Below, in pieces: positions 19,851 to 25,505 of a stretch of 32,000 nucleotides of DNA. The first letter of the stretch is position 1. Every line of letters begins with the position of its first letter. Below the pieces are notes generated by a model. It searched no databases and was not told where the DNA came from. It saw nothing but the letters and a program-made list of their open reading frames with translations. The DNA is taken from positions 750,001 to 782,000 of the forward strand of contig JBDHVY010000001.1 of the NCBI GenBank assembly GCA_039809905.1, given 5' to 3'. Source of the stretch: Candidatus Babelota bacterium (GTDB taxonomy: Bacteria; Babelota; Babeliae; Babelales; Vermiphilaceae). A program made the translations under genes and the position numbers.

Positions 19851-21668
19851 ATGAACAGATTCTATTTATCTCAATTTTTTGGTTTATTGCTATTCATCTT
19901 GCTGCCGATATCCATAGTTGCAGAATATCATCACGCAACATTCACCGTGAATTTTACTCAATCGAATAATGGGTGCCCCACTGCAGAGAATCGTAAGTTG
20001 GGCTTAAAATCATACAGACCAAATAATGATTTTTCTCATCATAAAGAATCGGCTGGATATGGTAGATTTTCTGATCATAAACCTTGTTTTGATAACTATA
20101 CTGTTCATGATTTTAGAGATTATTTTACTGCACGAGGATATATAGAATCAGAAATTCTTAATCAGCCTTGTCTCTATATGTCTGAGGAATTTGTAAAATA
20201 TGCTCAAACATGTTCTGATTATAAAAATAAAATAAGAGAAATGTATGCAGAATTAAAAAATCTTAGCGTAATTCAAAAAGCTTGTCGTGTAGCGAAGGGG
20301 ACATATTGTAGAAAATTGCAAAAGCGTATTGGAAATCTTTATAAATCATTAGATACAATCAAAGAAGAACCGCAGATCAAGGGATATTATAATGTGCCGG
20401 ATATTCCAGAAAAGGCTTTTAACCCAATTGAATGTTTTGCAGAATATCAAGCATTAGCACCTATTTACCAATCGCATACGCCAAATCTGGCAAAAGCAAT
20501 TAATGCGCGATCAGTTATCTATAGAAATAGTGCTGCCAATCATTCCGGGCTTCAGTCAGTACAGAAATCCTACAATCTCAATGGTAACATTAAAAAATTA
20601 CTATCTCGATATGGCCATAACGCTGATTCTTTTACTTACTGTTATGGCAATCAATTGCAACAGACTATTCATCAAGAATCATTAGATATCCTTAAGCAGG
20701 TAGATAACCTGCCTTCACATTTCATTTTGTATGATCATCAAGAAGCATTAGTTGATATGGCTTCATCTATTGTTGAATACAATCATGCGGATATGTCAGA
20801 TAAAGCAATGCAGGTTGCTGATTTGTGTTGGACATTGCTTGATTATGGCCAAGCAATTGCTGAAGGTGCAGCTTTAGGATTATATTCTGCTGCGCATGAT
20901 ATTCTGACCAATCCTATTGAAGCAACAGTATCTACCGTTGCAGGCAAACAAGTTCTTGCATTCCAATTATGCAAAGTCCTTTATAATGTTGCTGATATTG
21001 GAGCAACAGCAATTCATGATTTTAAAACAGCTCAAGACAAGTGGGATAAGTATACTGAGCCTTTGAATACTATTATCGATGCTATCAACAAAAAAGAAAT
21101 AACGGTAAGAGATGCCATTAAGGGCGGCACTGCTTTTGTGGTGGGTTATAAAGCTCAAGGGAAGTTGCTGGGTGGGTTGGGCAAGTTTTGCGATACGATT
21201 AAACATAAAAGTATTAATTTTATTAAAAATAATCCATTGTTAAATTCGCAAGAATATTTAACAACACCAGAAGGATTGTTGTTTAAAGCAACTGGGCAGA
21301 GTGGTAAACTAGAGCAATCTATAGTACCGAGTTTAAAAAAAAATGTTGAAAAGAAGGTTGCTAAACATAAAAGTATAAAGCGGCTAATAAAACAAGAAGG
21401 CTTACCAACAAAGGGTAAATTACGCTACGTTCCTCCTAAAAAGCTTCATTCATTTGATAGGTTGCCGTATGAAAAATTACCTGGTAATAGAATAGGATTT
21501 ATAGATAGGTTCGGAAATCTTTGGGTCGAAGGAAAATCTAGAACTAAAGGTCAACTTTTTGAGTGGGATGTTCAATTATCAAAACAAGGTATACAACAAG
21601 TAGGATGGATGACTCGTGATAATAGTCATCTTAATGTTAGTTTAGATGGAAGGGTAACTCATAAATGA
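19851..21668 (+). CDS. Polymorphic-toxin-like secreted protein 1 (conserved body + C-terminal module CT1)
   Basis: 605 aa with a strong RBS (aaggggagcgagg). Signal-like leader. aa 1-479 are paralogous to ORF 22749-24587 and end in YLTTPEGLLFK. The unrelated 126-aa tail (21288-21665) carries GFIDRFGNLW...FEWDVQLS...HLNVSLDGRVTH. Confidence 0.75.
   Translation: MNRFYLSQFFGLLLFILLPISIVAEYHHATFTVNFTQSNNGCPTAENRKLGLKSYRPNNDFSHHKESAGYGRFSDHKPCFDNYTVHDFRDYFTARGYIESEILNQPCLYMSEEFVKYAQTCSDYKNKIREMYAELKNLSVIQKACRVAKGTYCRKLQKRIGNLYKSLDTIKEEPQIKGYYNVPDIPEKAFNPIECFAEYQALAPIYQSHTPNLAKAINARSVIYRNSAANHSGLQSVQKSYNLNGNIKKLLSRYGHNADSFTYCYGNQLQQTIHQESLDILKQVDNLPSHFILYDHQEALVDMASSIVEYNHADMSDKAMQVADLCWTLLDYGQAIAEGAALGLYSAAHDILTNPIEATVSTVAGKQVLAFQLCKVLYNVADIGATAIHDFKTAQDKWDKYTEPLNTIIDAINKKEITVRDAIKGGTAFVVGYKAQGKLLGGLGKFCDTIKHKSINFIKNNPLLNSQEYLTTPEGLLFKATGQSGKLEQSIVPSLKKNVEKKVAKHKSIKRLIKQEGLPTKGKLRYVPPKKLHSFDRLPYEKLPGNRIGFIDRFGNLWVEGKSRTKGQLFEWDVQLSKQGIQQVGWMTRDNSHLNVSLDGRVTHK
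20828..21287 (+). repeat. High-identity block shared with toxin 2 (partner 23705-24164)
   Basis: Constant offset of 2877 nt. The first ~300 nt differ at only about a dozen positions by eye, versus much lower identity in the 5' parts of the two genes. Confidence 0.8.
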
Positions 21669-22039
21669 AATTACAATCTTGTCTCATGATTCGATGTATC
21701 GCTCTTAATACTATAAATACGCAGGAACTTTTTTATAAATTAGAAAATTATACAAAAAAATATTTTCCCTATGCAGAGGTCAACTTAACGATAAATGAGC
21801 CTTATTGGAAAGAACCAGAGTCCAATGAAATTATTTATCAGCTTTTCAATAATCAATTTGTTACTGTAACTGACTACATTAAAAATATGTTTTTATCTTG
21901 GCATCAAAAAAAAATTAATTACGAAGAAAATGCTGTATGGAGTAAATTATGCTACTCGGAACAAATTTTTCTGATGCCAGAAGTTGAATGGGTTCAAATA
22001 TATACATGGGAAGAAGAAGAAAACCCAACAATGAATTAA
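21665..22039 (+). CDS. Immunity-like protein for CT1
   Basis: 124-aa ORF. Its ATG overlaps the toxin stop (ATGA). No signal peptide, acidic and Trp/Tyr-rich. Position is typical of cognate immunity genes. Confidence 0.6.
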   Translation: MKLQSCLMIRCIALNTINTQELFYKLENYTKKYFPYAEVNLTINEPYWKEPESNEIIYQLFNNQFVTVTDYIKNMFLSWHQKKINYEENAVWSKLCYSEQIFLMPEVEWVQIYTWEEEENPTMN

Positions 22040-22067
22040 TAGCAAAAACTTTTAATTCATTGTTGGG
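22024..22067 (+). terminator. 16-bp perfect stem-loop at the end of the toxin1/immunity1 module
   Basis: CCCAACAATGAATTAA (22024-39), 12-nt loop, TTAATTCATTGTTGGG (22052-67). The left arm is the last codons of the immunity ORF. No clear U-tract follows. Confidence 0.45.
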
Positions 22068-22188
22068 CAAATAAAAAGAACTATTTTGCACTTTCGTTAT
22101 TTACTTATTAAGTTCTGCAAATAACGTCTGAATCGTACTTAGTGAGTACTTTATCGGAGCTGTTTTATTAACGAGCCTATCTCTGAGT

Positions 22189-22328
22189 GGATGCCAGTCT
22201 TCGCTGCTAACGCAGCTTCGTCTGGCTCCGCCGGCAAGAAAATCTAAGCAAATACAAAAACTGTGATAGCAGAAAGCGAAGACTGTCCGAAGTAGTTCAC
22301 ACTTTGTGAGAACGTAGACGGACCATCC
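22189..22328 (+). other. GC-rich, highly structured non-coding segment (candidate ncRNA or displaced tRNA-Glu trailer)
   Basis: Nested complementarities: GGATG(22189-93)/CATCC(22324-28); CAGTCTTCGC(22195-204)/GCGAAGACTG(22276-85); GCCAG/CTGGC(22193-97/22222-26); GCTGC-taac-GCAGC(22203-16); GTCCG/CGGAC(22285-89/22319-23). GC content is clearly above the surrounding spacer. Confidence 0.3.
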
Positions 22329-24587: not shown

Positions 24588-24614
24588 TTTTTAAATTATA
24601 AAAGTCAAAATAAG

Positions 24615-25124
24615 ATGTTAAAACTCAAAAATATTTCACCTATTACTAGAGAAATTTACAATGAATCAGATTGTTACATTAAAATTAGATTGCTATTTAA
24701 GCAGCTAGAACCTTCAGATGGTGTGTGCTATTGGAATGCTTATGGGCAAGCAAGTTCTTTAACAGAAATTACCTTGTACAATCCAACGGGAGCCATTTAT
24801 GATCTGACAATTTTTTTTGCTGTCTCTAATATTAAACGGAAAGATATATCAACAATAAAAAATGAGGCGATTGAAAAAATTGGTTTTCCCTTATTTGAAA
24901 CTTATATAGAAAAATACCAAGAAGGATATTACCATCTGCCGGAAGAAAAAATTGACTTTGAGATTCATGTTGGGGAAAAAGATACCACTATTTTATTTTC
25001 ATCGAATTCAGTAGTACTTCACGTTAATAATGAATCAGTTATTTTTGGTTTTGATTGTGATAATGACCTATGCTATATCCATCTGAAAAATATGACTTTA
25101 AATGAAGAAGGTTTTTTGAAATAA
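24615..25124 (+). CDS. Immunity-like protein for CT2
   Basis: 169-aa ORF 27 nt downstream of toxin 2, same strand, no signal peptide. Confidence 0.55.
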   Translation: MLKLKNISPITREIYNESDCYIKIRLLFKQLEPSDGVCYWNAYGQASSLTEITLYNPTGAIYDLTIFFAVSNIKRKDISTIKNEAIEKIGFPLFETYIEKYQEGYYHLPEEKIDFEIHVGEKDTTILFSSNSVVLHVNNESVIFGFDCDNDLCYIHLKNMTLNEEGFLK

Positions 25125-25172
25125 AAATAGTTAACCTCTTCAACCTCTAAAAACTTCAAATAAAGAGTACGT

Positions 25173-25505
25173 ATGATTAAGGATTCTTTTATTAACATAC
25201 AAGAAATAGAAAGTGAACTAAAAAATATGTTAGAGATAGCGGAAATCTTTAGCATAAAATTTGCATTAATGAGTCAACAAGTAGCATATATCTTTTCTCA
25301 ATTAAAAAACTGTAAAACATATGAAGATGTGGATTGTTATTTTAAATGCTTAGATATAATCCAAGGAGATTTAGCCCGTTTATCTTACGAATATAATGTA
25401 GGATTACCTGATCGGTTGATGAGATTTGTGCATGATTTTGATAATTTTGAAGAAGCAAAAAAATATTATTTTCCAAAAATAAAAAGTGGAGAATATTCAT
25501 TTTAG
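25173..25505 (+). CDS. Second small immunity-like/orphan ORF
   Basis: 110-aa helical, acidic ORF, same strand. Lies between immunity 2 and the orphan CT1 fragment. Confidence 0.4.
   Translation: MIKDSFINIQEIESELKNMLEIAEIFSIKFALMSQQVAYIFSQLKNCKTYEDVDCYFKCLDIIQGDLARLSYEYNVGLPDRLMRFVHDFDNFEEAKKYYFPKIKSGEYSF

Follow-up and report, generated by a model that had tools for sequence, protein, structure and literature searches.

What is encoded by two neighbouring genes whose products share a long body and then end in quite different tails? The question is posed by a locus in a 32,000-nucleotide stretch (the window; positions 750,001 to 782,000 of contig JBDHVY010000001.1, assembly GCA_039809905.1) from the genome of a Candidatus Babelota bacterium. 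A first reading of the letters by a model (the sequence-only reading) had proposed an undescribed polymorphic toxin/immunity locus in a host-associated, reduced bacterium, and the computational analysis presented here largely bears this out: this Babeliales (Dependentiae) genome very probably carries, in tandem, two polymorphic toxin/immunity cassettes that resemble MafB and depend on Sec. The proposed lifestyle fits as well, the named relatives of the toxins being Candidatus Babeliales or Dependentiae and the source contig measuring 1.23 Mb. What carries this answer is the paralogy of the two genes, the identities of their tips, the polymorphism and shuffling of those tips, the co-variation of tip and downstream antidote, and the absence of known trafficking modules, each of which is established below. 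The toxin genes, their parts and the small genes beside them are as follows (aa, amino acids; ORF, open reading frame; CT1 and CT2, the C-terminal tails).

19851..21668, + strand: toxin gene 1 (ORF1), 605 aa, with leader, body and Ntox17 tip; found as an ORF
19851..19922, + strand: signal-peptide-like leader of ORF1, aa 1-24 (ending ...SIVA, before EY); hydrophobic N-terminus, KD 2.29
20556..21284, + strand: conserved core of the body, ORF1 aa ~236-478; delimited by BLASTP against long relatives
21255..21287, + strand: junction motif YLTTPEGLLFK of ORF1, aa 469-479; family consensus
21372..21662, + strand: CT1 toxin domain, Pfam Ntox17 (PF15524), ORF1 aa 508-604
21665..22039, + strand: imm1, 124 aa, candidate cognate immunity gene for the Ntox17 tip; ORF whose homologues follow Ntox17 tips
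22335..22586, + strand: small GIY-YIG protein, 83 aa, between the cassettes, of uncertain membership in the system; PF01541, E 1.5e-15
22749..24587, + strand: toxin gene 2 (ORF2), 612 aa, with leader, body and EC869-type tRNase tip; found as an ORF
24132..24164, + strand: junction motif YLTTPEGLLFK of ORF2, aa 462-472; identical to the ORF1 motif
24231..24572, + strand: CT2 toxin domain, homologue of the CdiA-CT(EC869) tRNase, ORF2 aa 495-608; phmmer against PDB 7VMC_B
24615..25124, + strand: imm2, 169 aa, candidate cognate immunity gene for CT2; ORF whose homologues follow EC869-type tips

An ORF search recovers the two large same-strand frames where the sequence-only reading had placed them, and their paralogy is clear: ORF1 and ORF2 are 72% identical by BLASTP across ~510 aligned aa (E = 0), and 72-75% identical over the shared body of ~478 aa alone. 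ORF2 is identical to the database protein P0002. The body is not the uniform block that had been described, since the first ~75 aa of the paralogues are only 35-47% identical. Both proteins carry YLTTPEGLLFK, followed by tails of the claimed sizes (126 aa in ORF1, 140 aa in ORF2), and in 30-codon windows the amino-acid identity of 77-100% between aa 314 and ~478 drops to 15-38% from aa 479 on. The statement that the two become completely unrelated one residue after the motif needs correcting: in most family members a weakly conserved, low-complexity linker of ~25 aa (typically AT.QSNKLKQSGQ...LKN.IE.K) still follows the motif, and the toxin domain comes after the linker. Among the 194 relatives with a complete junction the consensus reads [QE][EQ]Y[LM][TA]TPEG[LIV]L[FL], with T present in 189 and G in 193. 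Between ORF1 aa 329-403 and ORF2 aa 322-396 (window ~20835-21060 and ~23712-23937) the DNA is 94-99% identical, in a tract that spans the hydrophobic helices of the core and is flanked by DNA of 80-90% identity; third codon positions share this high identity, and the tract suggests a recent gene conversion between the two genes.

Leaders were judged by hydrophobicity, and the cleavage site of ORF1 (between A and E) was read by eye. A hydrophobic leader is found in 126 of 163 full-length members of the toxin family, as against 1 of 17 members of the imm1 family and none of 33 in the imm2 family, a division that supports the toxin/immunity reading. In the window, imm1, imm2 and a further 110-aa ORF all lack an N-terminal hydrophobic stretch, the first two having been described earlier as leaderless. 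In the predicted structure of the toxin, a helical domain (aa 77-335) is well folded, with a predicted local distance difference test score (pLDDT) above 90; the moderately hydrophobic core helices at aa ~340-388 are modelled at low confidence, and a beta-hairpin appears at the junction (aa 470-477), likewise in a low-confidence stretch. Invariant and near-invariant alignment columns cluster in the core (ORF1 aa ~236-478). Read from its sequence, the toxin begins with a putative leader and a variable N-terminal part, continues in a helical core of ~240 aa that is specific to the lineage and ends in Y[LM][TA]TPEG, and closes with the linker of ~25 aa and an exchangeable, predicted nuclease tip of 100-140 aa.

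The sequence-only reading had proposed a survey of what follows TTPEGLLFK in relatives, holding that one constant tail, or a body recognisable as an ordinary enzyme, would speak against it; the tails proved to be varied, and the body is not recognised as an enzyme. Tails from 91 close homologues fall into 10 unrelated families: EC869-type (19), Ntox35 (18), Ntox17 (15), weakly colicin-E3-like (10), NC101-type (8), EndoU (8), Ntox21 (4), weakly DUF4258-like (4), CdiA_C (PF18451; 3) and a family of no known type (2). In a wider set drawn from the 194 proteins with a complete junction, 182 tails form 24 sequence clusters, about half of them without annotation. Tail class is uncoupled from body relatedness: the nearest body relative shares the tail class in only 18 of 80 proteins, the class differs in 85 of the 111 pairs whose bodies are at least 70% identical, and in 124 pairs tail identity exceeds body identity by at least 20 points (97% versus 50% in one example). 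The tails, in other words, are shuffled. Alternative tips on a conserved region, an immunity gene that co-varies with the tip and cassette exchange, which are among the features that define polymorphic toxin systems (Zhang/Aravind 2012), are found in this family, and the classification offered by the sequence-only reading is strongly supported.

The first tip is a clear Ntox17 domain (E 3.2e-25; 88.6 bits against a cut-off of 25; profile positions 2-98 of 98), a domain listed among polymorphic toxin domains on MafB-type, TcdB/TcaC and type VII secretion system (T7SS) toxins (Zhang et al. 2012, PMC3482391). Loci from other genomes were gathered through the body family, and the small ORFs of the window were compared with them by tblastn. 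A homologue of imm1 follows all three Ntox17-tipped genes found in this way, with 51% (L004), 67% (L010) and 45% (L011) identity, and begins right at the toxin stop codon, overlapping it by 4 nucleotides (nt) in the gene calls of L010 and L011. The same arrangement holds in the window, where the stop of ORF1 and the start of imm1 share the 4 nt ATGA, the overlap from which translational coupling had been proposed earlier. The imm1 family comprises 17 sequences, the named ones from Babeliales only. Zhang et al. 2012 (PMC3482391) report Imm31 as the immunity family that goes with Ntox17, but imm1 does not belong to it: imm1 matches no Pfam family at E <= 1, and no Pfam domain is recorded in the precomputed annotation of its 17 homologues. 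Position and co-occurrence mark the imm1 family as a new candidate for immunity to Ntox17.

The second tip has no match in Pfam or NCBIfam. It does match PDB chain 7VMC_B ('tRNA nuclease CdiA') in a phmmer search (E 5.6e-24, ~50% identity, tail residues 23-136 against chain residues 195-306). This chain is the CdiA-CT of E. coli EC869, which cleaves the acceptor stem of specific tRNAs in E. coli with EF-Tu, EF-Ts and GTP as cofactors, and whose proposed catalytic residues are His216 and His281 (PMC9071432). The histidines of CT2 in NATKHM and YHA align with chain residues H237 and H302, which correspond to His216 and His281 after a 21-residue tag offset. By homology, CT2 is assigned as a BECR-fold tRNase of the CdiA-CT(EC869) type. 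Directly after both of the EC869-type tips found in other genomes lies a homologue of imm2 (61% identity in L008, 57% in L009). The best PDB match of the imm2 family profile (33 sequences, the named ones from Babeliales only) is 7VMC_C, 'Contact-dependent inhibitor I', the CdiI that neutralises CdiA-CT(EC869) (PMC9071432); it is nearly full length (E 7.5e-4). Imm2 may therefore be distantly related to CdiI(EC869), the match being weak but falling on exactly the expected partner; the sequence-only reading had missed this relationship. At L009 (3261-3722) an orphan 33-codon fragment of an EC869-type tip (82% identity) precedes a truncated imm2, mirroring the Ntox17 fragment of the window.

Behind the second cassette lie two features without a partner of their own.

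25173..25505, + strand: orphan immunity gene, 110 aa, cognate toxin not at the locus; its homologue follows an NC101-type tip in L002
25538..25638, + strand: orphan 3' fragment of an Ntox17 tip (last ~33 codons), with no immunity gene behind it; nucleotide match to 21563-21663

Both had been picked out by the sequence-only reading, as a further orphan immunity-like ORF and as an orphan CT1 fragment, and both identifications hold. In L002, a homologue of the 110-aa ORF (55% identity) begins 2 nt past a toxin gene whose tip (class 5) matches CdiA-CT(NC101), PDB 5I4Q_A (E 3e-18). Further homologues (51-57% identity) in L008 and L010 are themselves orphans and carry a precomputed PF28101 'CdiI-like' annotation; the 110-aa ORF itself has no match in the local copies of PDB or Pfam, from the latter of which the PF28101 model is possibly missing. 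The tip fragment shares 99 of its 101 nt with 21563-21663, stops a single base short of the point that corresponds to the imm1 start codon, and matches positions 65-98 of the Ntox17 profile (E 1.2e-8). Orphan tips or immunity genes occur in the window and in L008, L009, L010 and L012, the last with an Ntox35 toxin, then a 245-aa ORF and finally an imm1 orphan sharing 91% identity with the imm1 of the window. At L010 (3447-9769) a full cassette (Ntox17 toxin, imm1, orphan CdiI-like gene and a 76-aa ORF) lies between znuC/znuB-like genes and znuA; sitting alone inside the znu operon, this copy shows the cassette to be a self-contained mobile unit.

How much of this is new depends on the part considered. 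What can rightly be called undescribed is the delivery body, together with its junction motif and the lineage that bears them, to which we add the candidate Ntox17 immunity family; the payloads belong to known families, namely Ntox17 and the EC869-type tRNases, neither of which the sequence-only reading had recognised, together with the NC101 type. For the body, we found no match in Pfam (including DUF1020/MafB_N, PT-TG, PT-VENN, RHS, LXG and PAAR), NCBIfam or PHROGs, no PDB match by sequence or profile search, and no fold match in PDB or BFVD. In searches of the full toxins with hmmscan (E <= 1) the only Pfam match besides Ntox17 was Prefoldin, which was dismissed as chance. The earlier statement that known modules are absent is thus right for the window proteins (no RHS, LXG, PAAR, PT-VENN or PT-TG match); some distant relatives of the body carry the pre-toxin domain PT-HINT, which had escaped that reading. 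The literature that we searched yielded neither a description of the body nor any study of such toxins from Dependentiae or Babeliales; automatic NCBI annotation does name a few of the relatives, through their tips or a HINT domain.

The family is large and closely tied to its lineage. Queried with the body, databases returned 136 close homologues, the named ones from Candidatus Babeliales or Dependentiae, and an exhaustive profile search gave 737 representatives at 50% identity. Six of the seven reference-genome loci come from metagenome-assembled genomes labelled uncultured bacterium, Babeliales or Dependentiae; the seventh, L006, is short and fragmentary, was binned as Pseudomonadota and is the sole exception among relatives with an organism name. 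Relatives of 800-2093 aa align by BLASTP only with the C-terminal ~240 aa of the body (from aa ~187 or 265 to aa 478), and since this is all that they share, the body is modular, with variable N-terminal parts in front of a conserved core ending in TTPEG. In P0132, P0141, P0181, P0182, P0189 and P0202 (850-2093 aa) the TTPEG core stands only at the C-terminal end, behind long unannotated N-terminal regions, and P0132 has a second, partial copy of the core. These N-terminal regions may be alternative trafficking or receptor-binding modules. A Babeliales relative, P0194 (HEV2601780.1, named by NCBI as a polymorphic toxin-type HINT domain-containing protein), is built of a leader, PT-HINT, a Gly-rich hydrophobic segment, the core, TTPEG and Ntox21, an architecture that links the core to the polymorphic-toxin toolkit; self-cleavage by HINT, as in other such toxins, would leave the core joined to the tip after release. 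Across the loci examined, no partner gene is conserved beside the toxin genes, and the upstream genes vary by locus (helicase, GIY-YIG, znuC, ftsZ, Rep-like gene).

Among known systems the closest analogue, by architecture and not by homology, is MafB/MafI of Neisseria, in which a signal peptide and a genus-restricted N-terminal domain lead through a junction motif to a variable tip, immunity genes lie downstream, and cassettes also occur as orphans (Jamet et al. 2015, PMC4287609). The Babeliales toxins begin with a candidate signal peptide and have a lineage-restricted, conserved N-terminal domain and a short motif before the variable C-terminal toxin, with a small immunity gene directly downstream; here too there are several paralogous loci, and tips or immunity genes survive as orphan remnants. 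Moreover, Ntox17, Ntox21 and Ntox35 are listed among MafB-type toxin tips (Zhang et al. 2012, PMC3482391). They differ in that neither full toxin matches DUF1020 (PF06255; hmmscan, E <= 1), in the junction (TTPEG as opposed to VSGDF, VKYDT or DWVKN in MafB), and in belonging to another phylum with the host-dependent lifestyle of Dependentiae. MafB export also depends on MafA (PMC7738311), whereas no MafA-like lipoprotein gene or conserved partner lies beside the toxin genes at the loci examined. With the contact-dependent inhibition (CDI) system of EC869 the locus shares the ~50% identical tip with both proposed catalytic histidines, and an antidote whose family has CdiI as its best PDB match, both immunity proteins measuring ~170-180 aa. 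The carrier, however, is unrelated: by Pfam the toxins have no two-partner secretion (TPS) domain, FHA repeats or VENN motif, the tip is borne by a body of 478 aa that has a Sec-type leader, where CDI uses a filament of ~3000 aa, and no CdiB-like gene was found in the window. The CdiA-CT/CdiI(NC101) pair (PDB 5I4Q/5I4R), an EF-Tu-dependent tRNase and its inhibitor, has counterparts in the class-5 tips that this body carries in other genomes and in the homologue of the 110-aa ORF that accompanies one of these tips in L002; the window differs in holding the orphan immunity gene without the toxin. Like the pre-toxin modules PT-TG, PT-VENN and PT-HINT (PMC3482391), the TTPEG core lies directly upstream of an exchangeable tip, but the window proteins match none of these, and in P0194 PT-HINT is N-terminal to the core, away from the tip. 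From Rhs/YD, LXG (T7SS) and PAAR (type VI secretion system) toxins the body is set apart by the absence of the corresponding Pfam and NCBIfam matches.

These comparisons suggest how the system would work. The pre-protein would be exported by Sec, while a leaderless antidote in the cytoplasm would bind and block the tip, as CdiI(EC869) does, both when tips fold inside the producer and when they arrive from kin. In a cell lacking the antidote, the tip would cut RNA, which for CT2 would be tRNA. Recombination at the conserved core and junction would exchange tip-plus-antidote cassettes between paralogues and between genomes, leaving orphan antidotes such as the 110-aa ORF and tip remnants such as that at 25538-25638. 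The core would travel with the tip, and we propose for it a role in target binding or translocation.

Judging from the sequences, the most likely use of such cassettes is antagonism between related bacteria, probably strains that share a host cell or a habitat, in which orphan antidotes would protect against the toxins of other strains. Several points weigh against exported toxin/immunity cassettes of this kind. The signal-peptide call is a judgement from hydrophobicity and by eye, no outer-membrane export partner was found at the loci examined, imm1 matches no known immunity family in Pfam (Imm31 included), the match of imm2 to CdiI is weak, and the predicted model of imm2 (pLDDT 45) is too poor for a fold comparison. 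Dependentiae are, furthermore, host-dependent, and their eukaryotic host might be the target instead. On this account the RNases would hit host RNAs or mitochondria, which have a bacterial-type EF-Tu, and the downstream ORFs would only protect the producer before export; neighbouring genes look like effectors against eukaryotes (for example the ankyrin and IBR/RBR protein at 16437..18008), and many toxin-like proteins of intracellular bacteria have been argued to act on the host (Zhang et al. 2012, PMC3482391). Such toxins, however, typically come without immunity genes according to the same study. Antagonism between bacteria is favoured because every tip examined here has a co-varying partner, because intact orphan antidotes are kept for tips not encoded at the locus, which self-protection alone does not explain, and because the characterised members of the CdiA-CT families that include CT2 and the NC101-type tips act in bacterial cells, the EC869 enzyme needing EF-Tu, EF-Ts and GTP (PMC9071432). 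We regard host-directed effectors as the main rival, but an improbable one.

Considerably less probable still is that the cassettes are selfish addiction modules, that is, toxin-antitoxin-like stabilisers of mobile DNA and not exported weapons. The locus does lie near a large serine recombinase abutting tRNA-Glu and near a weakly Rep-like protein of 393 aa, a homologue of which also flanks the L008 toxin locus, and the L010 cassette is inserted in the znu operon; an intracellular module, though, has no need of a conserved ~480-aa body with a leader, hundreds of relatives carry their tips fused to the same body, orphan antidotes and shuffled tips are typical of competitive systems, and no att repeat bounding a toxin-containing island was found within the window. 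That the body should be some ordinary enzyme or a structural protein, with tails that are integral domains, is barely credible: nothing was found in its favour, and 10 to 24 unrelated tail families meet at one junction, most identifiable tails are known nuclease toxin domains, and the tails are shuffled relative to the body. A bolder version of the toxin/immunity reading holds that the ~240-aa TTPEG core is a new, self-sufficient pre-toxin and translocation module, which after Sec export would take the tip across the outer membrane into a neighbour without a dedicated partner, in strain warfare among the obligately host-dependent Dependentiae that possibly takes place in a shared host cell. 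We put this forward tentatively, as a possibility more doubtful than likely; a body that works without a partner would amount to a new way of toxin delivery.

Dependentiae (TM6) are almost uncultured and host-dependent, and their ecology is read from genomes. A large, diversifying toxin/antidote family with orphan antidotes implies frequent antagonism between related strains, which is unexpected for bacteria thought to be sheltered inside protists. That the payloads and at least one antidote are common to proteobacterial CDI points to long-range exchange of cassettes between unrelated delivery platforms. The body would represent a new trafficking or pre-toxin domain, and its sharp junction motif is useful for mining more toxins.

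Upstream of each toxin gene lies a candidate promoter element.

19808..19816, + strand: candidate extended -10 box TGCTAAAAT of ORF1; exact match, within a short block conserved between both upstream regions
22701..22709, + strand: candidate extended -10 box TGCTAAAAT of ORF2; exact match, in the conserved upstream block

The sequence-only reading gave each toxin gene its own extended -10 box, and TGCTAAAAT indeed occurs in the whole window only at 19808 and 22701, 35-40 nt upstream of each ATG; the count of two is, however, about what chance would give (mean 1.5), so that it is the positions and not the frequency that are suggestive of promoters.

Several neighbouring genes deserve mention. 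The 83-aa GIY-YIG protein between the cassettes has an 80%-identical copy at the corresponding place ahead of an EC869-type toxin gene at L009 (121-366), and these copies are more conserved than the adjoining toxin and immunity genes (~56%); the site could be a conserved insertion site, or the nuclease could act in cassette mobility. Upstream of the locus, immediately after tRNA-Lys (14600-14675) and tRNA-Glu (14760-14837), comes a 501-aa large serine recombinase (14781..16286, - strand), the 3' end of which overlaps tRNA-Glu by ~57 nt. This arrangement resembles one border of an integrated element; a second copy of the tRNA sequence that would mark the opposite border was not found elsewhere in the window. 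Next to it, a 523-aa protein (16437-18008, - strand) begins with a hydrophobic stretch, carries ankyrin repeats and ends in zinc fingers of the IBR/RBR type, making it a eukaryote-like RING-between-RING ubiquitin-ligase candidate and probably a host-directed effector. The 393-aa protein (18068-19249, - strand) has no Pfam match and a weak PHROG match to 'replication protein' (E 4e-4); its homologue at L008 (9363-10478) is 52% identical, a fragment lies near the L005 locus (3960-4124), and it may be a mobile-element gene that travels with toxin cassettes.

Downstream, a 205-aa membrane protein with a leader (25817-26434) is internally duplicated (two ...PWYK...KDC... halves), and 2 kb further on (27979-28270) there is a shorter paralogue whose N-terminus is the same. 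A 282-aa AAA_15/AAA_21 ATPase (26646-27494), just downstream of the toxin locus, is of the OLD/AbiEii-like class common in defence systems. A 340-aa protein (28326-29348) with a hydrophobic N-terminus and an HExxH motif (AHELTHLALQHH) is possibly a secreted zinc metalloprotease. Elsewhere in the window (4828-7640, 3705-4646 and 7731-10433) lie a type II/IV secretion ATPase (T2SSE and MshEN) followed by small ORFs, one with an N-terminal methylation (pseudopilin) motif, and BamD-like and TamB-like genes; no link to the toxins was found for these envelope genes, which are consistent with a diderm cell equipped with machinery of the type II secretion system or pilus type. At the far end (30960-32000), where GC content reaches 0.53 with a strong G skew, a Gly-rich repeat protein (GGGGGFGGNGG..., GGAIFV..., FxxN-like motifs) runs off the window, and its repeats are reminiscent of chlamydial polymorphic membrane proteins or autotransporter passengers.

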